Source of the DNA: Psilocybe cubensis
Lineage: Eukaryota
Direction of reading: 5' to 3'
Length of the DNA stretch: 64,000 nucleotides
Assembly: GCA_017499595.2 (NCBI GenBank)
Contig: CM039008.1
Coordinates: 682,001-746,000 of the forward strand
Part shown: in pieces, positions 9,662 through 36,829 of the stretch
Numbering within the stretch: position 1 is the first letter of the stretch
Layout of the letters: every line of letters begins with the position of its first letter
The notes under the pieces: generated by a model
Seen by the model: only the letters and a program-made list of their open reading frames with translations
Told to the model about the DNA's origin: nothing
The model's database searches: none
Made by a program: the position numbers and the translations under genes

Positions 9662-9684
9662 AATTACGGCCTGCTGAAGTACAA

Positions 9685-13422: not shown

Positions 13423-13465
13423 TATGGACAGTCGGGGGAGCAGGAATTCCAATTTATCTGTGCGT

Positions 13466-13662
13466 ACTGCCCTGGCAATGAGCCTGGGTAGTTTAAGCGT
13501 TCTGCCCTAGCAATGAGCCTGGGTAGTTTATGAGTTCTGCCCAAGCAATGAGCCTGGGTAGTGTCTCGCGTTCTGCCCTAGCAATGAGCCTGGGTAGTTT
13601 GCGCGTACTGCCCGAGCAATGAGCCTGGGTAGTGAGGCTGCCCGAGCAATGAGCCTGGGTAG
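13466..13662. repeat. Second array of 6 CTGCCCnnGCAATGAGCCTGGGTAG units (~35-bp period)
   Basis: Cores at 13475, 13510, 13545, 13581, 13616, 13646; lies upstream of the 10313-13422 gene. Confidence 0.9.
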
Positions 13663-13792
13663 CGAAGAAGAACCAATGACGCAGGAACGTGTTGAGATCA
13701 CCACGCGTGTCGGAGTTTGAAATTGCCATCAGGCGGAATCTGAATTTGGGTAGGGTTCCGTTTGTTGGCTCTGTTGACTTCCGCACCACTAC

Positions 13793-14320: not shown

Positions 14321-14518
14321 GGTGGGCTATTTTTATCCTCTGACAGCTCGCTGTCGATGGCGATCGCGCCTCCTTCGCCCGCTAGTTATGGCAATGGCGC
14401 GGAATAGCGCGGACATCTGTACCTCCTCAGGTGTCCATTACATAACCACTGCGCTCGGTATATGCGGAAGGGAGTTTTTTTCATCCCTTTTCTTCCCGTA
14501 CCACCACCATCCACCACC

Positions 14519-16630
14519 ATGCTCACCCCGACCCAGATTGAAAAAGCCCTCACGGCTATCGACACCAACAAAGAACTCGAGTAAGCCTGAATCCCCCCCT
14601 CCCCCGTCCCCGTGCGCGTTAACCGCTAACGTTATTTGTAGATGCCCCGAACTAGCAGACACTCTGAAGGGCGCGAGATGGATTCACCAGTCCATCGACC
14701 CATTTATGAACGTAAAGAGCGTCATCCAAGAGGGTCTCGAGTTTCTGGCCAACCATATAACGGATGGTATGACCCGACAACAAATATTGGAGTAAGTATA
14801 TGCGCCTTTTTTTTTCTGGGGCATTTATTTATGCATATATTAGTTTACAACCCAAGCTCTGGTCCTTCTATGAGATGCAGGACTTGATGCCCGACCTTAT
14901 GGATATCATCAAGAAGTGCGAGGACAATTCTGCCTTGATTGGCAAAGTCATTGATTTGGTAAGAATTTTGTGAGGTCGCATGTACAGATCGACTAACCAT
15001 ACTTGTAAGGTATCGAGTGCTGCAGCTCATTCGCGATCCGACGATCTCTTCAAGGCACATAAGTTGATCCCGGAGTTGATCCCATTTGATCTGAGGGTCC
15101 CACTTGACCTACAGGCCTACAAACTGGCCTGTGCCAGGGTGAACCGGGGCTATAAACACCCTGCATACGCCGCTCTTTTAATCCCGCGTGTCAAGTTCGC
15201 CGAGCTCGCCGACCTCAATGCGCGTGAAATTCTGTAAGTCGGCTTGTTATTTTCTGCGAATATGAGTTGATTTATTTGTGGATAGCGTGCGATGTGAATC
15301 ACTCGAAGCCGATACCAAAAATGGAGACGCGCTGGATTGGCCAGCTTGCTTGTATGACCCTGACATCCCATTTGACATAGACGACGAGGTCCAAGGTCTG
15401 TTTCGACCACCCTTGGGTCCCCAAGTAAGTTTTTTTTTATGTTTTGACATGTCATTGATACATATTGGCACTCTAGTTCGTCCAACGTATGCTTGTAGGC
15501 GAGGCCAACAGGCTTGGAGGACGTGCCAGCAAAGGACAGATTCACAAAGTATATGAACTAACGATAAGACTCATATGTTATTATTGCATGATGGTAAGTG
15601 GACATTGCCAGTAGTCTGTCAGTGCTAACCTCCTTCAAAGCTTGTCATTGCAATCAGCGGTAAGACTTGGCCTGAGGCGAAGAGCATTTTGAAGGCCGAC
15701 CGCCTCTACGCATCTATTCTGACGCTTCTGTCGGGTCTTTCTGATGACGATACGTGGGCCAAGGAGACTGTGGCTTGGTGGCAAGAGTAAGCGTGCCTTA
15801 CGCGCTTGATTTTATGCTAATGAATTTCTAGGAACATTATCTTGCCATCTGAGCCCGTGGATCATGACAAGAAGTCGTCCCCTTTGGAAGGTAGTGCACG
15901 CGACGGACGCCTCAGAGACCCGGTAGAACGGCGTAAAGCTCAAATGGCCGCTGCGGCTCAAGCACCTGCACCTGCTCGTGCACCTGCTCGTGCACCTGCT
16001 CGTGCACCTGCACCCGCACCCCCTCGTGCACCCACACCCGAACCTGCTCGTGTACCCACACCCGCACCTGCATCTCCTCAAGCACGCGCACCCTCCTCCC
16101 ACCCCGCCCCAGATAATGGGTCTGCACCAGCGCTAGCTAAAGCATTTGCAGCTGTTTCACTGGCGGAACCTGTGCCTCAACAAGTCTCCCGTCGCCGAAT
16201 GGCATTAAACGCGATTAGGATCCCTTCAGAATCCCCCCCTGACCTCCCTTCCGAGGATTCTTCCTCTCTTTCTTCCGAAAACGAACGCTCCCCTTCCCCA
16301 CCAGCCCCGATCAAGATCAAGGTGCGTTTTCACTCGAGATTGGTTCATTACACTAATATTATGATTAGCTCCCTGCAAAGAGGAAAGCGGCGCCACGCCG
16401 CCCTGGTCCAAAGCGTAAAGACGTGAGTGTATTTATTACATTCTCTATCTAGGGCTCATATTAGCTACAGGCACCACCTTCAGACCCCTTCGAGACCGGG
16501 GATGAGGCCCAGCCTACTCCCAATTCTGACGCCACCGCCGCCGACGGTGAAGAACCACCAGCTAAAAAGGCCAGGACCCAGGCCAAGGGAACGCGCCAAC
16601 CTATCAAACGTAAGGCTAAGAAATTCTGAT
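14519..16630 (+). CDS. Multi-exon TE-cargo protein, DUF6698-like, with Pro/Ala-rich C-terminus
   Basis: MLTPTQIEK..., ARWIHQSIDPF, AHSRSDDL, GYKHPAYAALLIP, WPACLYDP..GLFR; many short GT-AG introns; family call from motif recall only. Confidence 0.6.
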
Positions 16631-19320
16631 GTCTCTCATTGCTGTAATTATTGCTCTGCTCTGCCCTGCTTTACATACCATGCCTGTACTTTTATTACTG
16701 AATAAATAAATTTGTTCTATTATAATCTGCTGGGTGCCTCAAAATCCCATTCAATCCTCCTTATCATTGAGAAACCCAATAAATTCTCGCAATGTTTTAT
16801 AACGCTCTTGATTCCTTGTCATCTCATACAGTAATTTGTTGAGATTATAAACTAGCCGCTTATTCTTTCATATTGCAATACCCAAAAATATTGTAAACCT
16901 CAAATTAATTTATTCACACTGCAATATTTCCGGTTTCTCACAACATTTCAAGAGGGTTGTAACGCAGTGTGAGAATTTCGAATAAAAAAATATTTAATTG
17001 GGTTTACAATGCTTTGTAATCTACCCGCACTTTTTATGATGAAAGAGGACCGGAGGTCAGCACACAGATGACGTGACTTTGAAAAAAGTCTCTCCACCGA
17101 GACACTTGTTCCTGGAATAGCCAGAAAGTCTTTGGCCATTCTACTAATGACCGGGAAGTTGTGCCCGTAGTTCTGTAGAATTATCAATTCTCAATGGTTA
17201 GTAAAGTATTCCAAACAATTAATAAGTGACGAAATTGCTTACTTTCCACCATAATAAAGGTTTGTTTGGTTCTCCACAACCAAATATTTGTCGAGCTTGA
17301 AGAAAATGCTCGCGTTCGTCTGTGGTGGGAGAAATTGCCTCTTCATTTACTGCATCGTCTTCGAAGAAGGCAATTTCATCAAGAAAACTTGAGGAGGCTG
17401 AGCTTTGTCGAGTAAGTGGCACTGCTGACTTCGGAGAATTTTCAAATGTAGCCTTGTAACGATCAAATGCATGCTTGAAAATGGTCTGAGCTTTAGCAGC
17501 TCGGTCACCAGAAGCATCAACTAGACGAAAAAATCTGATTCCAAGGAATGGATGTAGCACTAGTTATGATTAGACACATTTGTGGCAATAGCAAAATAGT
17601 TTAAGAACGTACTCGTGGCAATAATGTTGTAATGACAGTTTTGAGCTTTCCCATGATACTTGTACAGCTTTTGAAGTCCTGCGGCCGCTGCTTCTTGAAG
17701 TGATGGAAGCAAGTTCATGTCGCTCGCAGCTTTTGAGAGATGTTTATCCATGAAATCATACATTGGAAGGACCCAGGGTAATGTTGGAGTGTTGGAATGC
17801 GACATCTGGAGTGTAACCTGAGCAAAGGGTTCCAGAATAGTTTCAAGCTTCTCGAGATAAGACCAGCTTTCTCGGTCAAGCACAAGGCTACTAAACCCAT
17901 GTAGCGATGCCCATCCGTTAATTGCCTATAGTAAATTCAAAGTCAGTACAATCTTATCAGATGCAAAACGTGAAGAAAATCAAACATTTCTAAGCATTAG
18001 AGCCCGCTTTATCATTGCGTGTGTATAGTTCCACCGTGTTCGAACATCCCGGATAGGTAGCAAATGGGCAATCAATACTTTGGGTGCCGGTTCTGCTGTA
18101 GTTGATGAAGGGGTATCAATTTTAGAAGATGGTTTTACCTCGTCCCTATACATTGTTGATGCAATTTTACGAAACTGTGCACGCCGTTGAGGAGATGATA
18201 AAATCTTTGATACGGTTGTGCGAAGCTAAAATAAAATTGAATCAATTAAGTAGAAAGCTCCAGCCAGCATGCAAGAATCTACCTTCAAAAGAGGGCTGAG
18301 GGCTGGCATAGAGCCGGCCAAAAGTATATGATCTTCCTTGTCTTCAGCAGACACCATAAAGGCGGTGCATTCATCTCCATTTTCCCCTTCACCAGCTTCG
18401 CGCTCCATTTCCTGAACAGCTGTATCGTTGTTGGCATCGTAGTGTACCGGCAGATCTTTCATTGTTTCGTAATAGTCATTATTTTCAGGATGTTCGGCCT
18501 CACCAAGAGTGGCAAGAATTTTTTGCACTACAAGATTGATGACGTGTGCAAGGCAGCGAATCTGCGCATTTTCAGGAATAAATTGTATGTCAAACTTGTT
18601 GATTAGAAGACGAGATAGTGTTCGCAGAAGAACATCGTTGGTTGCCGCATTATCGCAGGTTACTGCTAAGAGGTATTAAATTAGGTAAGTAATCGTGATC
18701 TAGTAAGCATCGCACAATGAAAACTGGCTCATCTTTTCTAAAACACCCATGTCCGACAAAGCTTTTGCCATCCCTTTGGCAGCATACTCACCTTCATGCT
18801 CCTTGTCAACAATTGTATGAAAGTCGATTACCCGTTCTACCAGCTCCCAGTCATCCGATACCCAGGTGGCAATGGTTCCCGCAAATGTAAAAATCATTGA
18901 TTTTGTAGTCCAGGTATCCGTCGAGACTGCAATTTTTGATTTGACGCTCTACAGAATACAATATGTTAGTCCACATATTGGGTATTGAGTATAATGTACG
19001 TACCTCTAACTCGCCTTTTACAACTCTATTCATCTCACAAAAAATCTTTGCAAGATAGTTGCGAACAGTTGTGTCTGATGGTAGCATGTATCGGCTCTCG
19101 ATGTATTTGAAAAGGCGACCAATGCCAGATGTTTCACCAGTTGTAAAGGGTAAGTCGTCCTCTAGAATCCATGCTGCGAACACGCTAAAAAAACCTTTCT
19201 GTGTTCGTGCCAGAGCCGGATTAATCTCGCCGTCCTTGAGATAGTCCTCCATAACTTTTGCTGAGGCTGCGGAAATTCCCCGAAGCTCGCCGGAACCATT
19301 AGGAGCAACAGGTGGTACAG

Positions 19321-19638
19321 CACATAAGACAGTTTATTTATAACGTACATTACCTAAGATTTAATAATAAGGATATTACGTGACATACGGTGGATTTACT
19401 CCCGCTACCTAATTAGGAGATTAGCGTGATGTACGTGTGATTTAGCCTGGCAAATCATAGCGTACATGACGTGCCATTTAGCGCTAAATGGAGCCGCCGG
19501 GTGGCCTGCGGGATCCGCGCGTCTACCTACACGGAAGAAACACGGGCCGGAAATGAGCCGGACGGGTCCATTTGCATCCCGTGTATTGCAAGCAGACGGA
19601 TCCGCTTGACCCGTGTTGTGCTGTCAGACGGACCCATT
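19321..19638 (+). repeat. Left TIR of the KDZ element (318 bp)
   Basis: Reverse complement of 34638-34955. Confidence 0.95.
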
Positions 19639-19763
19639 CATCCATCCGCTTCTGTATTCCGACAAATATCCGCCTTGAATCGTACATTGGATGACCGTTA
19701 ATATATGTAATAAGGTGTATAGATTATACTGGCAGCAAATTCCTTTCCACATACCCTGATAGT

Positions 19764-21043
19764 ATGGATTATGCCTTTGAGCTAACCCAATCCCTCTCAA
19801 ACTACATGAAGGCAAAGATAGCTAGTCGTCTTTGGCATGCAGAACTGCCTAATCAAATCCGGGAAAACTTCAGTGCTGAGACCATGTTTGAGTGCAATCT
19901 AGCTGTGGAAGTGATTTTGCAGGCATTTGAAAATCAAGGTATGCAATCAATAAGCTTTGAAAATTGAGATTAAATAATGTGTGAATGGCAGAATATACGA
20001 CGTGGGATGCAGAAGAATATTTGACCCATCTCAGCGCACGTTGCACGGGTCAGAATTCTGCCGTTGAGGCTCGCCTGAAAGACCAGTTTCCTCCGGTGCA
20101 TTCCACGTTACAGTACCAAACCCTGCCCGGAACTGTAATCGATAGTGCAGGCAACATATTGGTGTGGTACCTGCCAGGTATTTTGTCAGAGACAAGGGTG
20201 GTGAGTTTTAGAAACGGACCGATTAATTCCTATATTATGCGTTCTAAAGAGTAACAGGAGAGTGTGTGGAATTCATTACGGGATATTGAAACAATGATTC
20301 ACAAGGCGGCACCTTTGGCCACAAGCTGGAGGGTCAATGACAGTTACTTTCGACATGAGCCAGGTTGGCTTCAACCTGGAAATCTTAACTTTTCCCCGGC
20401 ATGGTTTCAGCAAGGCCATGAGGTGAGAAACTTGTTTGCTAAGTATTATACTGCCTCATATTTTCCTCAGACGTCCAACCCGCTTGAGGTCTCCTTGGAC
20501 TTGTGTAATCCTATTGGACAGGAGTTTATACGAGACATGATGACATCTTCGGCTTTGCTGGGAGCCATCTTGAGCATTATACACCCCGAGCAGTACCGGG
20601 CGGGAATAAAATTTCTTCAACGGCTTGCTGCGGAACCGGAGTTCGTCCATAAGGCCGAAATATTGAAGCAAATTCTCACAATATGGAGTTCGCCCTTTGG
20701 AGTCATGACCGCCATCAGCAACCGAGATACACCGTACCATCGGGATAATGGGTCATGCTACTCATGGTACGATTTTTTGATGCCACTTGGGAAGGGTGAA
20801 CACGGACGGCTTGAGCTTCCTGGCCTTGGACTTCGGTACAAGTATGATCCCATGACCCTTGTTGCAATTACCGGCAGGTTGCTTCAACACGGCGCGGTGT
20901 GCGAGGGAGATAGGGCAGTCATAGTCTATTACATGCGTAGGAATGTATTTAAAGAGCTGGGAGTCCAAGAGGCGGGATGGTCTACTACGTACGATCTTTT
21001 TGCAAATTTACCGGCCACCAACACTTTTGATTTTGAAATATGA
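19764..21043 (+). CDS. TET/JBP-family 2OG-Fe(II) dioxygenase (fungal TET-like; about 4 exons)
   Basis: GNILVWYLPG, FSPAWFQQGH, TPYHRD (HxD), LELPGLG, LLQHG (distal His), GDRAVIVYY (2OG-binding Arg); located in a KDZ element, as is established for basidiomycete TET/JBP genes. Confidence 0.87.
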
Positions 21044-21270
21044 TCAGTTTTTGACTTGGAAGTTGGGTTTGGGGAAGATTTTTTTATATTTCCAAAACAA
21101 AACGGTACGAAAGCTACAGAACAACCAGAATTCTCTGTCCCAGGGTGTTTCCGACGCGCCCGCGCTGAGCTCTTCCAAGGTTACCGGAATCATCGGACTC
21201 CGCCGTCGTATTACCGGCGGAAAAGGCATCATCCGCCTCCTCTTCGATGTCCTGTGCGAGAGGTGGGCAA

Positions 21271-22895
21271 CTAAGATTCCTCATCCCAGGGTGTTTCCGA
21301 CACGTCCTCGCTAAGCTCTTCCGAGTTACCGGAAGCATCTGACTCCTCCGTCGTATCACCGGCGGAAGACTCCTCATCCGCCTCCTCTTCAAAGTCCTGT
21401 GCGAGATGCTCTAAAAACGTAGCTGGTGTAGAGGATTCAGTGGTATCGGACGTACTATCAATATCATCCTCTTCTCCCGGGAAAACAGGTCTTGACCTTG
21501 CGTTAAAAAGGAAGGCATTGCTGGTGTGTGCATTTGACGGAGGGCTGACGGAACCGGGAGTAGGCAGAGTATCTGTTGGGAGATGAATATTTGCAGTGTT
21601 GGAGGGTGGCGAATGATACCAGAGTGGATGAAAAGGTAGTTCCTTGACGGCAATAAAAGAATAAAAAATGTCGTTGATGTAAAATGAAGCGACTTTGAGC
21701 TTTGAGACCTCGAAGGACCGGGCTTGAGCCGTTATAGCGCCCCAACTGTCAGGAGAAGGGTGAATGGGATGCTGAAATTTGTATTTGGCTGAAAGCCCCT
21801 TGCCGTTAGAGAACGGGTGCTCCTTAGAGTCAATCCACATCTTCTCCAATACAGAATATCTGCCCAAGGCGGCCGAAGAAGTAGTCACTGCTTTATGGGC
21901 ATTTTTCATTTTGTCCGCCACATTCCGGCGCAGGTGAGCCAACTCCCTCATTACGCCCGTTAGGATAGGCTGACCGCAGCGGGGACAGTAGGGCGGTCTG
22001 TGGTCAGAAATTGCAATTGGGGATGTTTCATCCCGCGTGTTTGCAACACGGGTCGGCGGATTGGGTTTCCCCGTGGGCGGTGAAAACGCGGAGCCGTGCT
22101 TTCCCGTCAACGCGGATCCGTGCTTCCCCGAGGTGGGGACGGATGTCCGTTCAGCCGCCTTTCCCTTGCCCTTGGGATTGTTTTCCTGATTTCTTGGAGG
22201 CCCAGAGGTAGATGAACTTGCGCCCTCCTTAGCTTCTTTCCTCTGATTATTTAGCCGGAGTACCTCTTGTTGGTATTCAGGCAGAACCACCTGGTGGGAA
22301 GGACGCAAATCAGATATAATCCACAGCAATAAAAAAACATACCTTGTTCCAAAATTCTCTTGCTTGCGATTCAACGGTAACAAAGGCAACTTGCCACTCA
22401 TCGCCTTCAGCAAATCCGTCCCTCCACCAATATCCCCAGCTCTTGGTCTGATTTAAAATTTCATCATCTTCCCATGCTGACCAGCTTTGATTTAGAGATT
22501 CAAATAGAACAGCTCGATGGTGGGGAGTTCGGTTCAAAACGGCATGTACGCTCTGATTGAGAATTTCTGATATAAAAAATGGAATATCGACTTGGAATCC
22601 ATTGACATAGCAGTATCCGAGTACTCTCAGCAGTATAGCCTGACGACCAGTTCTCAATACAAGATATAATCGTTCAAAATTACTGTCTTACCACCTCCAG
22701 GTCGAGCAAATACATCCATTTTTGGCGACGCACGGAGGAAACAGAGTCTCCGTTTGCAATGAACAAACGGTATCCGGCACGGATCCGTGCACCACAAATA
22801 TGGACATGAACTTTGGCCAGAGCACGTCGCTCATCATAGGTAAGGAGATGATGTTCGTCCTCGACAGGAGGTTTAAAAAGCCGCGGTAAGTGCAT
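21271..22895 (-). CDS. Hypothetical KDZ cargo protein (multi-exon; CPRC motif, acidic tail)
   Basis: ORFs 22680-22964, 22310-22657 and 21271-22413 can be joined by GT-AG introns; start uncertain. Confidence 0.55.
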
Positions 22896-22939
22896 GAATT
22901 CAACGAGATGGGATACAACAAGAATGTTCAAAGAACTGG

Positions 22940-25900
22940 TTAATCTGTAATTATAAATCTCCACACGGACGGATACTCCGGGTTAATTTGACGGAAGACC
23001 TTATCCGCGGCCCGCCCCAGATCATTCCACATGGCAATCTGCTTTTGAGCATTTGCCCTGTGACCAACTAACCTGTCAGGAACAAAATCATGCCGTGCAC
23101 GCCATGTCTTTGCCATATACACATAAAATCTGACAGTCCATTCCATTTCCTTTTTTGTCAAGGCCAGCTCCTCTTGCCATCTATTCCTCTGAGCTCGCGC
23201 GCGGAGCCAGTTTAGCCTAAAGACTAAGAAGCCCTTGAGAAAAAAATTAGAAATACAAATAGCAGTACTCACACTCATTAACGTATAATTGATTATCATT
23301 GTCCAGGCCCTGACGGGATCTCCAAATCCAACTTAGACGGTCCGAGCTTCCTCCGCGAATGTTCGGATCCGACACGGCATTACTATGCTTGCAATCATGG
23401 ACTTGCAGAATGGGATATTGTTTCCGAATATTATCCTCGTCTCGCACGCCAGCAGATAAATAGATCATCTTCTGACGGTTTGTGTTGTAGAGTCGCCGGT
23501 GCAATTTCCAGGAAGCATTCAAAAGCTTGACGCCATCCCAAGCACGAGTCCCCATATAGACGGAGTCGGCGGTCCGAACCTGATATTTATACTGCCAAGA
23601 AAGCTGGATCAAGGCTGACCGGACCGCTTCCAGACAGTCCTCTGCGTGGCCATGTCTTATTTGAAGTTCAAGTTTGCGAAGCCCTTTTAAAATGAGGTTT
23701 GTTCCCGCGTCAAGGCCGTCAAAGAAATCTTGTTTGACGGCGGAGGGAAACGGAAGCGGCTGTCGTTCCGGATCCGCGCGGGTAATGTTGACATTTCCAA
23801 GATCAGGATCGTCGTTGTCACTGACTTCATAGTCAAGTATGGGAGCGATGTCCCCTTGAATATCCTCCAAGACATCTTCGCCCATGAAGGTCATAGCGGA
23901 TCGACAGAAGGCTTCAACGCGGGTCCGCATGGAGCGACGTTTATTGACCAAGTCAAGTTTCTGCGCGGTGGAAGGATGCTTTCCGAGCTTTCTGACATGG
24001 TCCCTGAGCTCCAATCTAAAAGCATGTTAAATTCTGTAGGATGCAATTGAAATAATCGTACTGCGCTTGCTCCAGTTTTAAGCCGGATGATATCCATGCT
24101 GCCTTTCCAGTAGCACCATTAGATGTAAGTTCCATATTTGAAAGATGCAATTCAATTTCTTGGCGTCCAGCAGCCGTTTTCACTTTGCTTGCCATTACCT
24201 TGCCAACAGCGTCGGCCACACCTTGTTCTCGGTCCGCTTCTGCTTTTGAAATTTCATCTTCCCAAGTGTTGATGAGCCCGGAATCTTGTTGATCCGTGAT
24301 ACCCCTATAAAATCGGTCTGTGATTCCGGACTGTTCCCGTGCCCGTTTGAACTTTGCAGCAATTGTTGCAGCCATATTAATGGTCTTCTTCCAGTTGGAA
24401 TCCCCCATGTGGTCGTCCAAAACCTCTGCTCGATGGGCAGTGGTAGCGGAACGTGTACTCCGGGATGTGTCATTTAACACGGACCACAACAGCTCCAGGA
24501 TTTCTCCGTCAATGATTCCCACACCCGGGACATAGGTGGATGCGTAGTTGTAAAGACATTCCGTCTTGTGCCCGTGGACGTGAAATAAACCAATTGCAAA
24601 AATCATTTTAACAGAAGGTGGCCAATGCATTTTTGTGGACTCTGAGAGACGCCTTGCCAAGTTAACGCAATATTGACAGTTTATATCGTAGATTTCCAAA
24701 TGTTTTGTGATTCCCTGTGTGTTGGTAGTTTCCCTGGCCTGAGTCAAAGACCAATCCATGTGCATCTGCTTTTCGCCTTTGTCAAAATCGACAACGCTGG
24801 ATGGACAGAAGCATCCGTGCCTAGCGCAAGCGTGTGCCCCAATTCCACGTACTCTCTTACCCGGGCTGACTCTGTTTTCAGCTTTCTGGGCGTGGTAGTT
24901 ATGACATGTTTGTTCCTGATATTTTTTTACACGGAGGATAAGCCATCCGCCGTGGAAGATTTTTTTGACACGGAAGGGAAGCATCCGCCGTGGAAGATTG
25001 TGACACGGAACGTAAGCATCCGCCGTGAAAGATAAATCATGGTAGATAACGCACCCGTTTATAACGTGGAGCAAGAGAAATTGCTTCCTTGATGTGCTCC
25101 TTGTATGGGCCCGGAGCAGTCATGTATCCTTCTCCAACGCTCAACCAAACATCGTCTCCCTCGTTTTTCTGATTGAGGTGATCTGCTTTGAAATTACCAT
25201 CTGCAACATAACTACGTATGTACAGATTGCTATTTGCTGTTAATTGCAGTCACCCTTGAAGAATAACTAAAACTTGCCTGTCAGCATCATCAATCCAGGT
25301 ATCAGGTAGGTTTATTCCAGGCTGTGGACAGGCGGGGCAGAATAAGGCCAACTTCCCTCTCCTATCTTCAACTTTGGGATGATCCTCGGTCCGCATCATT
25401 TGTGGTGCAGGCGGACCATCTAATCCGCCGTGTCCCAGAGACGGGTCCGTTGACATTCCGACTTCTTGAGACGGACTATCAGATCCGCCGTCAATTGGAT
25501 CAGATACATTAATACCCATCCTCTCTGGTGATGAATCATGGCAATGATGATAGTAAGGGACCACCGCTTCTCTTGTATGCCCTTCTCCGTATTGTCGTCT
25601 CAGGACAAGGTCCCTGTATTCTCTACTAAGCCTTCTCAATTCACGATAGCGGTTCAGCACCTTTTTTGGAAACGCTGGCGAAGTCAGTCTTCGCAACTTT
25701 TGGTAATACTGATAAGCCGACGTTTTGCACTCGAGGTTGTCCATCCGAAAGTCCTCAAGGACCTCAACTGTGAACACAGTTTGAACGTTTTCAAAGCTGG
25801 CTGCAAATAATCCCATCTCCAGATACTGTAAATCGATAGACGGAAGGCGGACGGACCGGCATGTGCATGTTCGCACGGGCAGATAATGGACTCCGGAGGT

Positions 25901-26862
25901 GTGCACAATTGCCTTGAAAGGAATTCCATTGTTGTCTGCTGCCTTTGGACGAGGTTGGTCCAGATAGGTTGTATCGACTTCCTCGAATAGATCATCATCT
26001 TCATCGTCTCCATCGTCCAGCTCAACCAAATGGGGTACCTCCGGGTCCGCCAGAAGCTGAGCCGTAAAGGATTCTTGGTCATTGCTCGCAGGAAGCGGAT
26101 CCAGGTCCAATCCGTGTTCATCCTCAAAGATGGGCGAATTGTTTCCGCCGTGCCCATGACTCCCGGATGAATTGTTTCCGCCGTCGCATCCTAGATGGCT
26201 CGGATCCGTGGGATAAGGACACCGCTTCCCATTATGACCCAAATACAACTTGACACCCACTTCCCACAGAGCTCCCGGACGGAAATATAGACCCGTCCAC
26301 TTCTCAACGCGGTGGAAAGGTGTAAATTGATGGTTTCTTCGCAGGCATTCAGAACACAAAATTCTAGAGCCAAAGCATTGGCAACATCTCCACACTCCAG
26401 ACATTCCTTGACATTGCTGACACCGTCCATTCAGATCCGGATCCGGGGCTTCTCCTCCAATCATTGTTCCAAGATACACCTCTCGTTTCGGGAGCCATTC
26501 CCTCAGGTAATCATTTTGAGACTGGATAGGTAAAGTCATCCTGATCATTCTACTGAAAACATGTTAAAACATACCTTTCCTCCCGTTCTGTCGTCATCTA
26601 GCTGTCTCAGGTTATCAAGTACCTGCTGATCAGTTAGATCTCCCGGATAATGAGGTATTTCTTCTTCCAGAATGTTGTGTTCATGGTTTTGGAAAGAGTA
26701 AGTCGTTGTTTGAGGGAGGTTTGTTGATGATGATTCTGCAGGAAGTTTGTGGATCCTCGGCCGCCCTCTCTTTCGTTTCTTGGCCCCACTAGACCAGGAG
26801 GCCTCCCGAACATTGGGAAACTCCTCATCCGATCCCCTATCAGGTACTTTCTTGAAGCCCAT
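22940..26862 (-). CDS. CxC2-domain KDZ transposase (multi-exon)
   Basis: CQQC..WRCCQC..CSEC..H..PFHRVEKWTG, VHTSGVH..CTC, CPACPQPGINL, DGNFK, ACARHGCF, DFDKGEKQ, YDINCQY, FHVHGH, DGEILE.LWS, LDDHMGDSNWKK, RARAQRNRWQEE. Confidence 0.92.
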
Positions 26863-27741
26863 GGATGTTGGAAACAAAGAGTCTGACAGCCTGTGAGCGC
26901 AGATCTAAATGTAGTATAACATGTTTATTTCTGTAGATAAATTTCCCTCAATTATGCCGTTTTAAAGAGGAGAAAAATAGCTTTCATATGATCTATCTTG
27001 CAGCATATTTGGATGAGTGAGTGAAATGTTATGAACAAAACTTAATCCAGAGATGCACAAAATGGACGTGATCCCATCATAAATGTACAATATGATGCAG
27101 AACGACCCTTTCAGAACCACACTTTGGAGTGTTTTTGAAATATCTTTTCACTGGCTGGCCCCTCATTCCTCCGGCGTATATCATATGAAAGATATTTTTA
27201 ATAGCTACCGAATGACATTTTTTGTAGAATGTGAATCCTCGTATTTAAGGAGATATTCTCAATATACTAGAAAATGTGTCAAAATGAGCTCACTGGGATC
27301 ATTATATTTTTTGAAAAAAATTATGCATTTGAATACCTCTCATGGTCTCTGAGATGACTGCCGTTTTGGGTTTCACAAGTTTTGGGTGAGAAGACGTGAA
27401 TTTGAATTTTGTGTTTCTGTATCTTTACAGCCATCTAACAAGAATTTAAAACCTTGTAAGATTATCTTTATATAAAGCGCTAAATGTTTACAAAATTTCA
27501 TGTTTATTGATTGAGTGCAGAGGGAACTATTGCAAAATCATGAGGTCAATGTATGTGACAGCGACCAGCATGCTTTGATCATCGTGGCCGACGATGAAGC
27601 GGGATTACCTGATTGGGAAAAATATGACATCACATCATTCATTTAGTATGATCGGAAGCTTATTTTATCTCCGTATGACGTGAGATTTGACTAGATCACA
27701 CAGATACTCATCGATAAGCTACTTGTTACATCGCTGCAATT

Positions 27742-30052
27742 ATGCCCACCATTGCATCCCCCGACGCGGATCCGCTTCCTTCCACCGCAAATGCCACAAC
27801 CCACAACGGACCCAGAAGCGGACAGACGGCGGAGGGTGACTTTCCGCCGGAAGAATCAAATATATGGACCACAAAGGAAATGCGCGTGTTGAAAAAGCAT
27901 GTACAGCCCTACAAAGATACATCAAAGTCATCCAAAGCAGACTACATACAGAACACTGTCATACCTGAGCTGCAAGCTACATGGGATCACAGATACTCTA
28001 GACGTGCTAGGAAGGAAGATAAGCAACTACACAAAGAATGGAAGGTGAAGAAGCATGTGAGCTCGTTGTTTCTTTGAAAATTTTGTTACACACATAAACC
28101 ATCACAATAGCGAATTTTTAATTGGTTTAGAAACCATGCGTCAAATCGAATTGGTGTAAAATTGGAAGGATTGAACTCCCGTATAACCTTTCAGACGGTA
28201 TTCCGTGAGGAGAAGTCGGCAGAGATTGACTCCGAGGTTGCGCTTCTATCAGGGAATGCTGCTCGTGGAAGTAAAGATTGGATGAAGTTTTATCAACAAG
28301 GACGTAAGCAGGTTGAGGCCAGATTGACTCAGGAGGAGCGGGACAGGTTCATGGAGATCCTCGAGGAATGGAATAAGAAAGGTGTTTCAAAATCAATGAA
28401 GGCAAAGTGAGTCGGTGGAACTTGTTTCCGCCGTCAATCTGACATCTGCAGGACTGCTGCCAGGCAAGGCAGAAAAATACTTCGACAAATGGAGAAACTT
28501 AAGTGGCAGAGAATGGGTATGAGGTCCATTACCTTTGAGGGGCATTATGATATTGAGGGTAAAATCGAATACTCAATGTAAGTGTTAAACACGGCATGAA
28601 CAAGTTCCGCCGTGAATGCTTACGGCGGAAACTTTATCCGCCGTAAACACCCTACGGCGGATAAAGTTTCCGCCGTAAGCATTCACGGCGGAATAATTTG
28701 GCCCGTATTAATGTTGACTGATGGGCATTGAAGGACCCAGACAAGCGATCTAGCACTCGACGATGTCAGAATTCCTTCCTTTGGGCAACTCTTTCCATCC
28801 GAGTTGGCCGCTTTTCGCAGAGCGTTTGTTCAATACCTCGTCCACATTTCAGAAATAGAGAAGGGTGTGGCCAATCCAGCACTGCCAGATGCATCGTTTC
28901 ATGAAAAATCCCTCAAGTTTAGCAGCAATGGATTTCCAATAGTACCTAGTCCTATCTATGGCTCAACTGGGAGAGAAGTCGCTTATGCGCAAAAGTCAAT
29001 TATTAGAATTTACATGAACAAGGTTTATGGTGTGTAATTTGTCTATGTCCTCAACAAACTTGCTAACTATGTATACAGCTTTAGCCAAGGATAGGCCTGG
29101 TTCAAGTGTTCCTTGGGATGCTCTTGAAAGGCGTTCTGCAGAAATGATTGATCCAGAGTATTGGCCAAGTTCAATCCCCGTGACGGATCCGAGCCGGCTC
29201 CGCCTGGAGTCAACTTCTGCAATTCTCAAGCTATGGAGGGACCGTCAAGCGCAAGGAGACATCCCCTTTAAATTCTCAAAGGTTTTTGGAAATGGCTATG
29301 ACATTATGGAACCTCTCTATCCGTCCAACTTGTTTGACGGCCTAGAAGCCCACCCGATACCTCCACCTCCTGCAGCCATAACCAAACGTCGGCTGAGGCA
29401 AAAAGCTATACGACTTCAAACCCAATCTTCAAGCGACTCTGAATCATCCAATCTGTCAGAGTTTGATAATGGACGGGGTAGTCCGGCATCCGCGATGCCA
29501 CGCACTACTGCCAGATTTGAAGTCACGCCAGAGACGGATGAGACTCCTACCGACGCACCTTCAAGATCTAGCGAGCCACCCTCTCTACCAAGTAGATCCA
29601 GCCCAACAATTGTCAATCCATCATCCAGCCCAACTCCAGAGGTTGAGGAGGCGCCTCCCAAGCCAGCTAGAAAGATTATGCCAAGAAAAAGAACAAAGCC
29701 ATATGTCGGAACGGCGGAAATGGACGGACCCGATGAAGAGAGTTCTGTACCCCCCCCAGTTAAGCCAAAACCAACTAGAAGGATTCAACCTAGGAAAAGA
29801 ACAAAGCCCTACTCAGATCCACTTAACACAGTGGAAGAAGATGGAGTCCAAACAGGAACAACCCAAGACACGGATAATACACGGGCCGGCAGGGACGTGA
29901 CTTGTGATGCCTTTGTGGAGACAGTAACAAGTCCAGATACGGATGAAACACGGGCCCGCAGGAATGTGACTTCGGATGCCTTAGCACTTCAGGAAGCAAG
30001 TCTGCTTGCTGTAGCAGGTAAAGGACAAAGAAAAAAAACTTTGAAAGCCTAG
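27742..30052 (+). CDS. Multi-exon KDZ cargo protein (helical, possibly HMG-like N-terminal region; Ser/Pro-rich basic tail)
   Basis: ORFs 27742-28077, 28162-28410, 28804-29037 and 29027-30052 linked by GT-AG introns; domain call tentative. Confidence 0.6.
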
Positions 30053-30330
30053 CTGTTGAAGTAGATTCATGATACCTATTGAATGTGATGCTTTTTATTC
30101 TTATCTTGATGTTTCTCAAACATGTTTTCACACAAAATCAAAACAGAAAGCGGGGTTCATTAAAAATCATCAAGTGCTACTTTTTGGGAGAGGTATAAAA
30201 CAGATGAGCACATGAGAGTAAAAACTATATACAGTCCAAATGATGAAAAAATTGTATAGGGATGTGAGCAATGTAATATATGACAGGCAAAAAAGGAGAC
30301 CAAAAAAAAGTTACAAAGAATTGAAATACA

Positions 30331-32895
30331 CTACTTTTTTTGGGCCTTGGATTTTTTGGGCGAGCGCGATGCTTCAGCCAGAGTCGTTTCCGCCTTTCGC
30401 TTTCGTCCAGCCCTTGTCTTTGTGGCTATGTTCGACGCGGGCAGCGTGGACGCCACGATCTCAACATCCTCCTCCTCCACAATTTCAACCTCGTCGCTGT
30501 CCGAGGGATCAGACAACTCCGATGAGTGTCCATTCCCGGATGGCCCAGCCTTGGAGGATGGCTTAGCCTTTGACAATGGCTTAGCCTTTGAGGATGGGCC
30601 GGCCTTTGACGATGGCGCGGCCTTTGACGATGGTGCACCCTTTGACAACGGTGCGGCCTTTGACGTCGAACTTCGAGGACGTGGAGCTGGGAGAGGGGGT
30701 GGTGGAGACAGGGAAAGGATGGGCGGTACCGGTGGGAGCGAGGGTCGGCCAGCTGGGGGGGGCGAAGGCGCTTCCGGAGTCGAACCGGGCAAGAATAGCG
30801 CTGTTGGTGGCGCAGACACGGCAGGGAGGACGGGTGCGGGTGGAGGTGGGGGAGGGGAAGGGAGGACAGGTGCTGGCGGTGGTGGAGGAGGGGAAGGGAG
30901 AATGGGTGCTGCTGGAGGTGGAGGTGGGGAAGGGAGGGGTGCTGGCGGTGGTGGTGCGCTTGGGGATTGTGGCACAGAGGTGGGTTCACGGGTCCGCGAC
31001 GGACCCGATTCTTGTTCGACCTCCGTCTTGGAGGGTCCTGCTGCCTGTTTGGGGGCGGGATTCCTTTGTTCATCCTGCTCCAGCAAATCGTCGACCACAT
31101 CTCGGACGTGGTTGATCCTCTTGGTGATGTCGTTGAACATCGTGACGGAAAGCGAGGTGCTTCCTGCCACTTGTTCTTTGGCCATGGTCCATTCGGCCTT
31201 CACCTCTTGGATGCCGTCCTCGATGCTCTTCATCCTGTTCTCCACCGCCAAGTTTGTCTCGGCAAACGTCGCAATCCGTGCATTAATCGCCGTCATGGAC
31301 GCGGATAACCCGTCCAGCCGTTCCATGATTCTGCCTTGGCGCTCAAAGAGCTGCACAAGCAGTTCTCCCACATCCTCGGGGAACGACCCTTCCCCGGCCT
31401 TCCCCTTCGCCGGAACATCTTCTCCCTCCTCCAACTTCAACGCCTCCCCATAGCTTCCCAGTGGCGTCGTCAAAAATTGACCCACGAAGGTGTTGCGCCC
31501 CGGGTAGAAGCTGCAGTGGATCTTGCGAGACTTGCAAGACTCGCAAGATTGGTGCTTCACGGGGACGAGAGGCTCAGTGCCTGTCTCCCCCTTGACATAG
31601 CATGGCACCTTGAATTTGATGCATGCCGTGCACCTTTCCACCATGTCCACCATCCCCTCTGGCACCTGGCGCACTTTCTGGGATCTCGACCGCGCCTTCC
31701 TGATGGGGGGGACATCGTCCTCGGTGTCCTTCTTTACGGAACGCGTGCGCATCTTCCGGGTGGGGGTGGCAGTGGGGGTGGTAGGCGGTGCCCCTTTGTT
31801 ATCGCCTTCGTCGTCCTCGTCGACGTCCGCGTCCGCGTCTTCGTCCGTGTGGCTTCCTATGATCGCCTTGCTCCTGAATTTCCCCTGCTTGGACTTCGCC
31901 AATCTTTCCAGCTTCTCCCTGTACGCTGGGTGACCGGGCATGTTGGAGGCGGTAATGTGGGGAATAATTTCCCCCTTCTTTGTCCGTGGGCCCCTGTAAT
32001 CCGCTGGAGCCAACTGAATGGACTCCACGGGGTCCGCCGCTTTCCGTTTGCCCTTGTCTTTGTGGGCGTCTGTCACGGGTCCGTCTTCCACCGGGGGTTC
32101 GACTGCCTTGCCCTTGCCCTTCTCGGCCCGTCTCTTCTCCGTCTCCTCCTTGTTCCTCTCCTCGTCTGTCTCCTGCTCCTGCTCCTGCTCCTGCTCCCTC
32201 TTCCTCCTCTCCTCCGCCTTCTGCCTCTCCTGCTCCCTGGTCCTCCTCTCCTGCTCCCTCTTCCTCCTCTCATCCTTTCTCCTCTCCTCCACCTTCTGCT
32301 TCTCTTCCTCCCTCTTCCTCCTCTCCTCCTCCCTCTGCCTCTCCTCCTCCTCCTCCCTCTCCTCTTCCTCCTCCCTCTTCTTCTTCTCCTCCCTCTTCCT
32401 CCTCACCTCCCTCTTCCTCCTCTCCTCCACCCTCTGCCTCTCCTCCTCCTCTTGCTCCTCCTTCTCCCTCCTCTTCTCTTGCTCCTCCTCCTCCCTCCTC
32501 TTCCTCTGTGCCTCCTGGCCTTCCTGGTAGGCCTTGAAGTTGGCGACTTGATGTTTGAGCGTCGCCCAGTCGACCTCAAACCTGTAGATGTTCTCGCCGT
32601 CCTTGCCCTGGATGACTTTGTACGAGTAGACAACGGGGCTCGCAACATAGTCAATGAGCCGGAAGCGTGCGGCGTCCCTGACATGCTCCTGACACAATGG
32701 AACCTATTGGAATTTTTTTTTTTTTGTTGAGCAAGTCATGATCTTATAAAATTGAGAACTTACCAAGTCCCTGTAAAGCTGCTCCAACTCAGCGTTGAAC
32801 GCGCTTTCACCGTTGCGGTAGCACTCGGTAAACTTTTTTTCCCAGTCAGCGAGGCGTTGGGCGAAGGTGGCGGTGGTGGAAGATGAAGCGGCCAT
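30331..32895 (-). CDS. Coiled-coil + Zn2Cys6-like cluster + Pro-rich protein (KDZ cargo)
   Basis: Exon 1 MAASSS... plus a 788-aa ORF; Glu/Arg/Lys-rich coiled coil; CTACIKFKVPC-x16-CESCKSRKIHC; basic NLS-like C-terminus. Confidence 0.75.
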
Positions 32896-33380
32896 TGAAA
32901 AAAGCGTGTTTTTATGGGGGAAGACGCGTTAAAGTGGTGAGGCACGGTAGAACGTGAGGGTGGTGATCGTGGTTGGAGTTAGTCTAAAAAAAGTCTAAAA
33001 AAAAGCGGTCCCGCAAAACAAAACCATACACAAACATGTACAATCTGAGTCATGTGATTTCTTCACCAGATCCAGTTTGTGCAAAAGTTGCTAAGTTCGA
33101 TACACGGGTGAATCTATTTCCGTGTCATGGAGAATCCTCGGATAGTATTGTATTCCGTGAGATATATAAACAAGCCCACCCAGTTGCACTTTCTGGACTG
33201 TATGTCCTCCTACAACTTTATTCCCACCTCTAGCAAAAATTCCCCCATTGACTACACCAGTCTCAACAATCTTACCAGGCTTCTTGAAAAACTGAAGGAA
33301 CCTCCTCCCGTAAAACCTATAAAATGTAAGACTAATGGCATTAATTCAAGTAAATTTTAATTGATTTCTGAGCATCAGCA

Positions 33381-34559
33381 ATGTCTTCAAATATTAGCAA
33401 CTCTAAGGAAAGCAAACGCACAGCAAGGACGGATGACCTGGCTCCGCCGCCAATGCCAGTCATTCCAGATAACCTGGCTCCACCCCCTATGCCTGTTATT
33501 CCAGATAACCTGGCTCCTCCCCCTATGCCAGTCATTTCATCTAACCTGGCTCCGCCCCCTATGCCAGTCATCCGGAAAGACCTGGCTCCGCCGCCAATGC
33601 CAGTAATTCCAGCTAACCTGGCTCCACCCCCTATGCCTGTTATTCCAGCTAACCTGGCTCCGCCCCCTATGCCAGTCATCCGGAAAGACCTGGCTCCGCC
33701 GCCAATGCCAGTAATTCCAGCTAGCCTGGCTCCACCCCCTATGCCAGTCATTCCAGCTAACCTGGCTCCGCCGCCAATGCCAGTCATCCGGAATGACACG
33801 GCTCCGCCGCCAATGCCTGTCATCCGGAACGACACGGCTCCGCCGCCAATGCCTGTCATCCGGAACGACACGGCTCCGCCGCCAATGCCAATCATTCCAG
33901 ATAACCTAGCTCCTCCCCCTATGCCTGTCATTCCACCTACCCTGGCTCCTCCCCCTATGCCTGTTATTCCAGATACCCTGGATCCTCCACCTATGCCTGT
34001 CATCCGGGATGATGTGGCTCCGCCGTTGATGGCAGCACATGTTTCATACACGTCTGTCGTCGACAAAATCATTATGGACTCTCGTCCAGCTATTTCCTCT
34101 GAGAGGAAGCAAGGTCGCTATTCTCCACCCCCTGAAGCATGCCACCTGCTCCTTCAAAACCCTTATTTTCGAACCTACGGCAGGTTTGATCCCATGGGCG
34201 GCTACCCCGGTTCGCCTCCCACCCAGTCTGACATTGAGTTCGAGGATGTGACAGATCAGACGGCATATTTTAACCCTCCTTTTCTATATGTATGCACTCA
34301 GATATTACCAAGCACTAGATACTGACAACTATTTTAGAATTATACCGAGCAGCAGCTACGGGCAACATACGACCAAATAATCGACAGTTCCGTCGGCGAC
34401 AATAGTTATGACAGCAAGGTCACAACGTTTAAGAACCTCCGCCTGCATCAGCTGCAGTCAGAAATTCTGACTTATAATGCGCTGGAGGAAATTGACGCTG
34501 GGCTGGCAGGGATTGAATCGAGTTTGGAAAAGCATTTGTATACCGGTAGAGATGAATAA
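33381..34559 (+). CDS. Repeat protein with ~16 (L/T)APPPMPVI-type 12-aa repeats (KDZ cargo)
   Basis: 36-bp coding tandem repeat at 33435-34030; intron ~34289-34338; last exon ends ...YTGRDE*. Confidence 0.7.
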
Positions 34560-34637
34560 ATTATTTTTGGAGCCCTTGTGCTCATTGATTCGCAATACCT
34601 CTCAAATATCCCTCCCTCTCTGGGAAGATACGGGTCA

Positions 34638-34955
34638 AATGGGTCCGTCTGACAGCACAACACGGGTCAAGCGGATCCGTCTGCTTGCAATACACGGGAT
34701 GCAAATGGACCCGTCCGGCTCATTTCCGGCCCGTGTTTCTTCCGTGTAGGTAGACGCGCGGATCCCGCAGGCCACCCGGCGGCTCCATTTAGCGCTAAAT
34801 GGCACGTCATGTACGCTATGATTTGCCAGGCTAAATCACACGTACATCACGCTAATCTCCTAATTAGGTAGCGGGAGTAAATCCACCGTATGTCACGTAA
34901 TATCCTTATTATTAAATCTTAGGTAATGTACGTTATAAATAAACTGTCTTATGTG
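34638..34955 (-). repeat. Right TIR of the KDZ element (318 bp)
   Basis: Reverse complement of 19321-19638. Confidence 0.95.
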
Positions 34956-36829
34956 GGTACAGTTAGGTCAAGGTTAGAATGTTTTTTAAGGTGAGTTGCT
35001 AAATTTCCGAGTGCTGGCTTTGGATGCTCATCGTCGAAACTCTTTTCTTTGTCCACAGTCCGTGGAACTGTTACTGACCTAATTTTTATGCAGAGCTGAG
35101 TAACGCGACTAATTTTATGATTGATTAAGTCACTTACTTTTTGCAGTGCCTACACGAAAACTCCCATCGATGAACTCCTTGTACTACAACGGGTACCGGA
35201 TTTCTAAAATGGGCTCGACTATAGTTTGCAGGGCCCTTTTTGTTGTATTTGACTTCTGTTTCTAATGCCTCAGGTACGTCGTCAACATCAATGACCTTAA
35301 TCTTTGCAGATTTGGCTGCGCTTGCTGATTTCTTTGCTTTTTTGTACGACGGGCCCTATTACAGTAAATATTCAATAGTAAGTTAACTTATACTTCTTAT
35401 ATTTCAATGTCTTACCTTGTTAACCTGTTCTCCTTCACTTTCTGTATCAGATACTACTCGCTGGCGCTTTTTTGGGTCATTCTTGCTATCATCAACTTCA
35501 AGCCCGTCCTTATCGAGGGTATATGACAAAATTGAATCTTCGGATGACTCACGCTCCATATTTCGGCGTGGTTTAAATGTAGCGTCATCCTCAGAATTGA
35601 TGTCGGTACACTCTCCATCTAATACAAGGTATTTAGATCTTTTATTCAGGGCTAGACGTGAGTTTAATGTGACATTACCTTTGCTAGGAAGGCTCCGAAG
35701 GTCACGTACAGCACCATTGATTAGATCCTGAGTTATTCCACTCATTTTTTTTGCCTTCTTTTTGGTTTTTGGTACCGGCTTTGTCTTTGCATTGTTATAG
35801 ACTCCTGTTTTCTTAGGAGGAAGTTTTCTAACCAATAGTAAGTACATATTAGATTGAATATAAATGTAGATATTAGTTACGCACGTAAGATATTTGAGCT
35901 CATCAAGTATCCGTTCCAGCTTCATCCCAACAAGGTCAAGGGGAATGTCGGAGACTTCCCAGTTTATTTTGCCTATATACACACAGAGATTTTCCATTCC
36001 AAGCTTTCCACGACGGATATAATGAAAGCGACCGTGCTCATCTCGACAGTCTGCATCTTCTTTAAATAGAATGTCCGTGACACGATTAAATGTCTCAAAG
36101 ATGGCTGAACCCTGACTTTCGATAGGAGCAGTAGGTATTGCAGTATAGATTTTATCGTGCCGTGTAGCCACTGGTATATTGTCCGGAAGCGACGATGAGA
36201 GAAGAGTCAAGGATTTGACAACTTTCTGAATGTGCAAATGCGTAACACGATTGCCAGGCAGAGGTGCTGACATGTCAATGTATGTGGTAGAATTTTCTGG
36301 CTTACTCTTGCAGCCTGCAACGTTGCCAACTCTCAGAAATCACATTTCAGTGAATTTTCTCCGGTTCTTACAGTAACCGCTGTCCCGCAACATTGGAAAT
36401 TGTGTTTTACTAATGCTTATTGGACAATTGAGTTGCTCAGATCAATCCTGGAATAGGGACCGTGTAAACTGTTTGTAAACGGTTTGTATACTGTTTGGCA
36501 TGAAGTACAAAATAAACTAAACAGTAAATGGAATAAACAGTTTGTAAACGATAAACAAACTAAACGATTGGAGCCTTACCTGAATCCAAATATGGATGAT
36601 CAGTAAACAACCCTGAACATGTGCCACCGTGAGAATCAAGTGAGGTGTTGTTTGTTTGGTTCAGGCAAATTAGAATGTGATAAGCTTGCAGTGGCGCTAC
36701 GCAGTGTTGACAATGCTGTGAGGACATCATACTGAGCAGAGAGATGGGCTGAAGAGGGTTTTGCGCGCAAAGCAGCAGAAACGCCCGAAAACCGCAACGG
36801 CTGCTTCCACATTTGGCAAAAACCAACAT

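Follow-up and report, generated by a model that had tools for sequence, protein, structure and literature searches.

Does a giant transposon that carries its own DNA-modifying enzyme survive as a complete and mobile unit, and which of its genes belong to that unit? The question is raised by a 64,000-nucleotide stretch of the Psilocybe cubensis genome (contig CM039008.1, positions 682,001 to 746,000; hereafter the window, with positions counted from its first letter), in which a DNA transposon of the KDZ superfamily with a TET/JBP dioxygenase gene lies at 19321-34955. It is the only KDZ/TET unit in the window. With a probability of roughly 0.88, we consider it an intact copy of a multicopy cut-and-paste KDZ transposon of the Kyakuja type, equipped with TET and partner genes.

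Termini, target site duplication, and interrupted frame

The element is 15,635 bp long and its ends, CACATAAG..CTTATGTG, have the form CA..TG. The initial annotation had described 318-bp terminal inverted repeats (TIRs) without a mismatch, and this holds: 19321-19638 pairs with 34638-34955 at 100% complementarity over 318 nt, with a collapse of identity at nt 319. Within the window, the outermost 34 nt of an arm are found only at the two arm positions (none expected, from 100 shuffles). Each arm contains three GACGGRYCC units; those of the left arm are at 19561, 19595, and 19627, with a spacing of 34 and 32 nt. The target site duplication (TSD) had been given as 7 bp, GGTACAG, which is borne out by both flanks and by a single copy at the empty site described below.

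Removal of the element with one TSD copy (15,642 = 3 x 5,214 bases) leaves a 218-codon open frame across the junction on the minus strand. The earlier claim that excision restores a hAT transposase frame thus stands as far as the open frame is concerned, but the hAT label is not confirmed. No hAT domain was found by Pfam at an expectation value (E) of 0.01 in six minus-strand open reading frames (ORFs) of the flanks, rescanning five of the six at E up to 10 gave a single irrelevant match (Obc1_C, E 0.14), and 18851-19333 had no match among PDB sequences.

Empty site, other copies, and recent mobility

Other strains were compared through two raw-read runs (X14 and X15) and two contig sets (X13 and X7), aligned on window 15300-30300. 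These runs were chosen by their content of window 13000-21000, and run X7 (share 0.50) has thin flank coverage at the insertion site. Other copies were assessed from reads and protein clusters.

Contig record 1 of X13 (4,161 nt) matches 17042-19320 with five letters different and then runs on for 255 further letters. A 30-letter consensus of this extension past 19320 is window 34963-34992, and GGTACAG is present once. Because 19320 is joined to 34963 with a single GGTACAG, this contig represents the empty site, and it shows directly both the 7-bp duplication and the presence or absence of the insertion among strains: the site is filled in the window and empty in X13. Since the site is empty in another strain, a recent insertion of this copy is, with good confidence, the best explanation of the data as a whole.

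Numerous reads enter the element from elsewhere. Reads with unlike sequence before 19321 that fit inward from that point numbered 591 in X14 and 628 in X15, with a flank agreement of 0.35 and 0.34, indicating several copies at different places with the same exact terminus. Past 19638, another 302 (X14) and 304 (X15) reads leave the arm for a single sequence, with an agreement of 0.96 and 0.95, that corresponds to window 34608-34637 in reverse complement. They represent the right arms of copies, which thus also have the inner limit of the repeat in common. At 95% likeness, the element was covered more deeply than the flank 17304-19307, by a factor of approximately 5.3 in X14 and 4.0 in X15; these ratios were computed by hand from the depth table.

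A second insertion event was found, in which one copy is nested in another. A joint from 19860 to 19321 occurs in 14 reads of X14 and 10 of X15, and a joint from 19320 to 19855 on opposite strands, with one shared letter, occurs in 7 and 9 reads, respectively; base 19854, a C, is complementary to base 19320. Together these joints and this base show that one copy has inserted into TET exon 1 of another, with a 7-bp TSD at 19854-19860 (CAAATCC). The TSD is accordingly 7 bp in both of the insertion events seen (GGTACAG and CAAATCC).

At 90% identity, the transposase belongs to a cluster of 39 members and the TET to one of 17, all from P. cubensis, and the closest proteins to the products of the element are all from this species. 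Transposase and TET have neighbouring locus tags in at least 13 annotated P. cubensis pairs. The initial proposal, that this is a whole KDZ element with TET that moved in recent times and duplicates 7 bp of target, is supported by the empty site, the second 7-bp TSD, the several copies with an exact terminus, and the TET-transposase pairs. The related expectation that other copies hold TET between the same ends is upheld by the linked pairs, but not in every case, as a minority derivative lacks the 5' half of TET.

The differences between this copy and the others are skewed. Relative to this copy, the other copies in X14 showed 94 C>T, 81 G>A, 29 T>C, and 28 A>G changes, and those in X15 were alike. 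Six of the ten C>T or G>A transitions displayed were at CpG, and the observed to expected CpG ratio of the element is 0.82. The skew suggests that this copy is near the source sequence, which fits its youth, and that older copies decay like methylated DNA.

The arms also vary. At 19384 and 19386, and at the mirrored positions of the right arm, 82-88% of the arm reads in X14 and X15 have G and C, versus C and T in both arms here, and at 19445 and its mirror position a T is found in 20-26% of the arm reads of these runs. The TIR types are symmetric within copies, a state that requires copying between arms (concerted evolution) at some time. One-base deletions relative to this copy occur at 26566, 29750, and 30152 in 20%, 12%, and 32% of X14 reads. 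The deletion at 29750 falls in the low-complexity tail of the partner's last frame, where it may shift the reading frame of some copies.

The CxC2-KDZ transposase

HMM searches for KDZ, CxC2, and Tet_JBP had been recommended, and Pfam finds all three. The KDZ domain (PF18758) has E 1e-37 and 130 bits against a cut-off of 26.6 in 24016-25119(-), and the CxC2 domain (PF18803) has E 1e-21 in 25250-26563(-). A KDZ domain with an N-terminal CxC cluster, together with defined ends and a TSD, places the element in the KDZ superfamily. The exon chain of the transposase has no frame break relative to the proteins P0135, P0198, P0200, and P0202, and differs from P0200 by one residue in the overlap. In an alignment of 18 KDZ sequences including this one, all 33 invariant columns are kept. 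Among named proteins, its closest relatives are CxC2-KDZ proteins from Agaricales, one of the genera being Coprinopsis.

The 3' end of the gene is less certain. Short annotated models end at 22943. The ORF at 21274-22287, which was initially taken to encode a separate "CPRC protein", is joined to the transposase in some P. cubensis annotations (1588-1707 amino acids) and not in others (1195 amino acids). Six genes had been listed for the element; all of the named ORFs are open, but the genes may number five if this ORF is the last transposase exon. Related loci, for which we used the best 80 of 492 confirmed KDZ-domain relatives on metagenome contigs and searched the six-frame ORFs with HMMs, contained relatives of exon 22340-22639 in 5 of 80 cases and of the CPRC exon in none.

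The TET/JBP dioxygenase

The Tet_JBP domain (PF12851) was detected with E 3e-19 in 20255-21043(+). All 373 residues of the product are identical to P. cubensis P0211 (four protein accessions; UniRef entry n=8). Alignment with CcTet (7vpn_A, E 8e-27) matches the HxD motif (HRD), the distal His, and the Arg that binds 2-oxoglutarate, and G331 and D337 of CcTet are aligned to Ser and Asp, as counted on the printed alignment. AG-type TETs have Asp at CcTet position 337 and Gly or Ser at 331, according to the text of PMC12730594. The element's TET shows the Tet_JBP fold, the catalytic residues, proximity to CcTet, Ser at 331, and Asp at 337, and is thus of the AG type. A TET gene is present in 19 of the 80 related loci, where it is mostly downstream of the transposase and convergent with it, as in the window.

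A divergent partner gene with a GTF2I-like repeat

The gene initially described as encoding a helical protein is a constant divergent companion of the transposase in related loci. It was found in 26 of the 80 loci, and in 17 of the 17 that include 4.5 kb or more of sequence upstream of the KDZ domain, on the opposite strand in 16 of these. Three of the loci (L060, L061, and L062) resemble one element seen three times, so that the independent count is somewhat lower. Annotated genomes show the linkage as well: partner JR316_0009877 adjoins transposase JR316_0009878 in Psilocybe, CPB83DRAFT_891564 adjoins CPB83DRAFT_891565 in Crepidotus, and both genes are on one 19,805-bp contig in Agrocybe. 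The family is large. Of 1.84 billion representatives (clusters at 50% identity), 971 were matched at E 1e-3 by a profile built from the conserved blocks of the partner, and 182 at 1e-10.

Ten long members of the partner family had no Pfam match at E 0.001, the nearest being one weak match to DUF3047 (0.0069). Below threshold, the model matched most often was GTF2I: of 27 members, five matched it at E up to 1, the best at 0.0057, and all 27 scored less than 27 bits and so fell short of the curated cut-off of PF02946. When a profile of these 27 members was compared with the PDB, only two sequences were matched, and both are I-repeats (E 0.048 and 1). A 150-member profile matched GTF2IRD1 (7e-05), TFII-I (1.3e-4), GTF2IRD2 (0.0018), and TFII-I again (0.013), and 7 of its 13 matches were GTF2I repeats. 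The aligned block reads IIRxYxNxHY..VPW..I...FID.EY.P..V..DPSR; in the window it is interrupted by the intron between 29031 and 29078.

An AlphaFold model of the family member P0229, made from a 27-sequence input, has a mean predicted local distance difference test score of 81.8. The six best Foldseek matches of this model in the PDB were GTF2I domains (E 0.14-0.51, probability 0.90-0.99). VIA-align comparison with 48,161 chains also ranked two GTF2I domains first, over model residues 267-390, with Z 7.4 (91 of 114 residues aligned) and Z 6.9 (82 of 90). The family therefore has both profile-level homology and a common fold with solved I-repeats, and these results point to a GTF2I-like repeat in the partner. 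The conserved block aligns with the I-repeats of GTF2IRD1, TFII-I, and GTF2IRD2, and the fold matches; in contrast to the GTF2I (TFII-I) proteins, the partner has a single repeat below the Pfam cut-off and is fungal and transposon-borne. To our knowledge, the GTF2I-type DNA-binding fold has been described only from animals.

There may be a second module. Residues 88-162 of P0229 resemble HMG boxes in many chains, with Z 4-6.4, a range that the tool calls common, and HMG_box_2 was matched by 1 of the 27 members (E 0.0033). No HMG chains appeared in the profile-to-PDB searches with the partner family.

We tentatively suggest, as an idea that we hold at somewhat less than even odds, that Kyakuja-type KDZ transposons are two-component elements. 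Their transposase would always be accompanied by a divergent GTF2I-like DNA-binding partner, perhaps with an HMG-box-like module, the partner family would have a common ancestor with the I-repeats found in TFII-I, GTF2IRD1, and GTF2IRD2 of animals, and TET would be a facultative module in third place. In that case the constant accessory function of these elements would lie with the partner instead of TET, and fungi would hold a transposon-borne reservoir of the GTF2I-type fold. No link of GTF2I with KDZ elements was found in the literature searched, which included neither supplements nor the original description by Iyer et al. 2014.

The intron of the partner gene that contains the perfect palindrome at 28605-28693 differs among copies. 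Joints that skip 63 nt (28604 to 28668 and 28621 to 28685) were present in 250 reads of X14 and 226 of X15 together, at a bin depth of approximately 380-410, and the X13 contig is also 63 nt shorter here. The palindrome is specific to this copy or its subfamily, other copies being 63 nt shorter.

Relationship to known KDZ elements

TET-carrying Kyakuja elements from five orders of Agaricomycotina have 7-bp TSDs and 5'-CA..TG-3' termini, as described in the text of Kojima 2025 (PMC12730594). Both features are present here, and the likeness extends to the KDZ transposase, the AG-type TET, and the Agaricales host. This kind of element was therefore already published in 2025, and the element in the window is a further member. 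The base-resolved ends and 7-bp TSD, put forward initially as defining a new unit, are not novel in themselves. What goes beyond the text of PMC12730594 is the 318-bp arms, the strain-polymorphic insertion, and the GTF2I-like gene that constantly accompanies the transposase. Its main text contains no occurrence of "Psilocybe cubensis" (Table S1 was outside the search) and mentions no third conserved Kyakuja gene.

The other described KDZ groups differ in several respects. Zisupton and TET-carrying Dileera elements have 8-bp TSDs, as given in the text of PMC12730594. Fish Zisupton shares the transposase superfamily, TIRs, and TSDs with this element, but has 8-bp TSDs, an animal host, and no TET. 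Cryptococcus KDZ1, KDZ2, and KDZ3, of the Dileera clade, resemble this element in being giant mobile KDZ elements with long TIRs and extra genes of unassigned function. In the portions of the sources consulted (PMC11343200, PMC12810828), they are 9-11 kb long with TIRs of 139-241 bp, 8-bp (4-8) TSDs, and CxC1, and no TET is reported, as against 7 bp, CxC2, and TET here.

One related locus, L009, shows both ends of an element. This metagenome contig of 11,639 nt carries the partner gene and a KDZ domain 42% identical to that of the window. Its arms (1-193 and 11267-11461) are at least 193 nt long and 96% identical, the left arm ending at the contig end. Among 15 related loci of at least 9 kb, both arms of a long inverted repeat were found only in L009; the other contigs probably do not include both ends. 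The L009 arms also hold repeated AAATCCGCT units, which recall the ATCCGC(T/C)T units at window 19600, 19644, and 19668.

Proposed mechanism and alternative explanations

In the mechanism that we propose, the CxC2-KDZ transposase would bind the 318-bp ends, perhaps at the three GACGGRYCC units of each arm, cut at CA..TG, and insert with a 7-bp staggered cut to give the GGTACAG duplication. The duplication is observed directly, and cut-and-paste movement is its probable origin. The CcTet-like, AG-type TET, convergent with the transposase, would oxidise 5-methylcytosine (5mC) in and around the element and loosen silencing by methylation. The divergent GTF2I-like partner may bind DNA and assist either transposition or transcription of the element, as an analogue of the Myb-like (Myb/SANT) protein of PIF/Harbinger transposons, where a second DNA-binding-type gene is likewise constantly linked to the transposase. 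The transposase and partner folds of PIF/Harbinger are unrelated to those of this element, so that a helper role here would be by analogy only. The linkage of such a second gene to the transposase is mentioned for Nuwa in the text of PMC12730594. The right third of the element, with a Zn-cluster-like frame and a 36-nt array, would be lineage-specific baggage.

Several observations weigh against this interpretation and have to be considered with the alternatives to it. The Kyakuja label was given because of the TSD, the termini, and the TET type, compared with published descriptions. TIRs are stated to be absent from two Laccaria families, Kyakuja-1_LB and Kyakuja-2_LB, although not as a defining feature of Kyakuja in the text of PMC12730594, whereas this element has perfect 318-bp TIRs. 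The element could instead be of the Dileera or Zisupton clade, its long TIRs then matching those of Cryptococcus KDZ1-3. We consider this very improbable, as those elements have 8-bp (4-8) TSDs and CxC1, and Zisupton and TET-carrying Dileera have 8-bp TSDs, in contrast to the 7 bp seen in two events here, the CA..TG ends, CxC2, and the CcTet-like TET. The fold scores behind the GTF2I-like assignment (Z of approximately 7, Foldseek E 0.14) are within the middling range of the tool. As for recent movement, all X14 and X15 reads at 19307 have the letter of the empty-site haplotype, which suggests that this insertion is absent from both runs, and the autonomy of this copy is inferred from its sequence. 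The copy could be structurally complete and no longer self-mobile, with arms that were homogenised and are not young, and its presence or absence could be old standing variation. The difference of 19384 and 19386 from most arm reads, with both arms here in agreement, fits such copying from arm to arm. An immobile relic of this kind is nevertheless unlikely, given that all three conserved genes are open, that several loci of P. cubensis encode an identical TET protein, that the nested insertion has a fresh 7-bp TSD in two raw-read runs, and that this copy keeps C or G where others have T or A, as expected of a copy near the source.

The role of TET is where the interpretation of the locus as an intact TET-carrying Kyakuja leaves the most room for another explanation. 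That the enzyme would oxidise 5mC at the element and counter silencing, the latter already raised in the initial annotation, is an inference. The enzyme might not serve to undo 5mC silencing at all, but act on N6-methyladenine (6mA), label the element so that its expression is regulated, or be a selfish passenger; we regard this as rather unlikely, though it deserves more weight than the alternatives above. The text of PMC12730594 reports that CcTet is also active on 6mA and that the two residues tied to this activity are kept in AG-type enzymes, as with the Ser and Asp found here. The C-to-T excess in other copies means that methylation-type decay was not prevented by TET. TET is present in only 19 of the 80 related loci, L009, the relative with both arms in view, is without it, and reads that skip 19663-20658 (27 in X14 and 9 in X15) reveal the derivative without the 5' half of TET. 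On the other side, the linkage of TET to the transposase recurs in the P. cubensis pairs and in the 19 distant loci, with a recurrent convergent position, and the catalytic residues are kept. Oxidised 5mC has moreover been reported around Coprinopsis Kyakuja elements, in the text of PMC12730594 citing Chavez 2014.

The element can serve as a reference for Kyakuja transposons with TET, being resolved to the base, apparently intact, and polymorphic among strains. Its host P. cubensis is open to culture and crossing, and many of its strains have been sequenced, so that the idea of TET acting against methylation silencing is directly testable between strains with and without the insertion. Models of the movement of these giant elements would need to include the GTF2I-like partner, which is not discussed in the text of PMC12730594.

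Gene content of the right third and internal repeats

The conserved core of the element is the partner, the transposase, and TET (coordinates in Table 1). The whole cargo set had been held to define the unit, and this is true of the helical (partner) gene, which is conserved in relatives, but not of the Zn-cluster, APPPMPVI, and CPRC parts, none of which has a relative in the 80 related loci. The right third, with its Zn-cluster-like frame and 36-nt array, is lineage-specific or not coding. The ORFs named in the initial annotation other than TET and the transposase had no Pfam match at E 0.01, apart from a partial one: Zn_clus (PF00172) matched the frame 30331-32703(-) with E 0.0086 and 16.6 bits, below the cut-off of 21, over 14 of 39 profile positions. 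In the ESM Atlas, residues 330-560 of this frame gave scores of 0.83-0.84 with Basidiomycota hypothetical proteins without Pfam domains, which is a lead only, and exon 28732-29037 of the partner gave at best 0.79 with bacterial and arthropod hypothetical proteins, which is uninformative. The 36-nt array at 33327-34111 may be a coding repeat or a subterminal minisatellite.

Table 1. Positions of the element's ends, genes, and repeats in the window
Feature	Position	Strand	Evidence or remark
Left TSD copy, GGTACAG	19314..19320	.	Single copy at the empty site of run X13
Left TIR, 318 nt, begins CACATAAG	19321..19638	+	Arm alignment; GACGGRYCC units inside
Right TIR, 318 nt, finishes CTTATGTG	34638..34955	-	Arm alignment
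Right TSD copy, GGTACAG	34956..34962	.	Sequence; empty site
Interrupted host frame, downstream part	18854..19320	-	Continues from 34963-35149; family label without Pfam or PDB support
TET/JBP dioxygenase gene, 373 amino acids	19764..21043	+	Exons 19764-19937, 19991-20200, 20258-20422, 20471-21040, then stop
CxC2-KDZ transposase gene, long model	21274..26862	-	Nine exons; chain compared with P0135, P0198, P0200, P0202
Transposase exons 1-5	26862-26575, 26521-25253, 25210-25055, 24915-24061, 24014-23274	-	Long model
Transposase exons 6-9	23221-22964, 22934-22692, 22639-22340, 22287-21274	-	Long model; last is the "CPRC protein" ORF
Partner gene, GTF2I-like repeat protein, possible HMG-box-like module	27742..30052	+	Profile, fold, and locus comparison
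Partner exons (approximate)	27742-28077, 28111-28407, 28450-28578, 28735-29031, 29078 onward	+	Exon models
Palindrome, perfect, 41-nt arms	28605..28693	.	Inside an intron of the partner gene
790-codon frame with CX2CX6C..CX2CX6C motif, coiled-coil stretch, and low-complexity tracts	30331..32703	-	Doubtful gene, lineage-specific
36-nt tandem array (33327-34111) within 317-codon frame 33372-34325 (APPPMPVI repeats)	33327..34325	+	ORF and repeat scan

The 8-mer TCCGCCGT occurs 20 times in the window versus 1.4 expected (largest shuffle 6). Nineteen of the 20 sites are inside the element (21199-34026), none of them in the arms, and the remaining one is at 62718. They are concentrated in the CxC2 exon, the palindrome, and a transposase intron, where 24925-25032 holds three units in tandem. 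As the 8-mer holds CGG/CCG half-sites, it could be a binding motif, or else a small internal repeat. Since CGG half-sites are bound by Zn2Cys6 factors, the Zn-cluster-like protein of the element is a conceivable ligand of the 8-mer.

Neighbouring features

A second giant DNA transposon of 13,474 bp occupies 3568-17041 of the same host segment, 2.3 kb to the left of the TET element. Its termini are CATCAAC..TTATGATG, with imperfect 58-nt arms (72%) and the TSD AA (3566-3567 and 17042-17043), and it contains a match to the Plavaka transposase at 8237-9835 (E 6e-11). These ends fit "PlavakaB" of Kojima 2025, for which the text of PMC12730594 gives CATCA..TGATG and a 2-3-bp TSD. Contigs of X13 and X7 pass from 17042 straight into window 3536-3565, and this insertion is thus also absent in other strains. 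Approximately 12 kb to the right of the TET element, the frame 46596-47780 encodes a polyprenyl synthetase domain (E 5e-39) and is an ordinary host gene.

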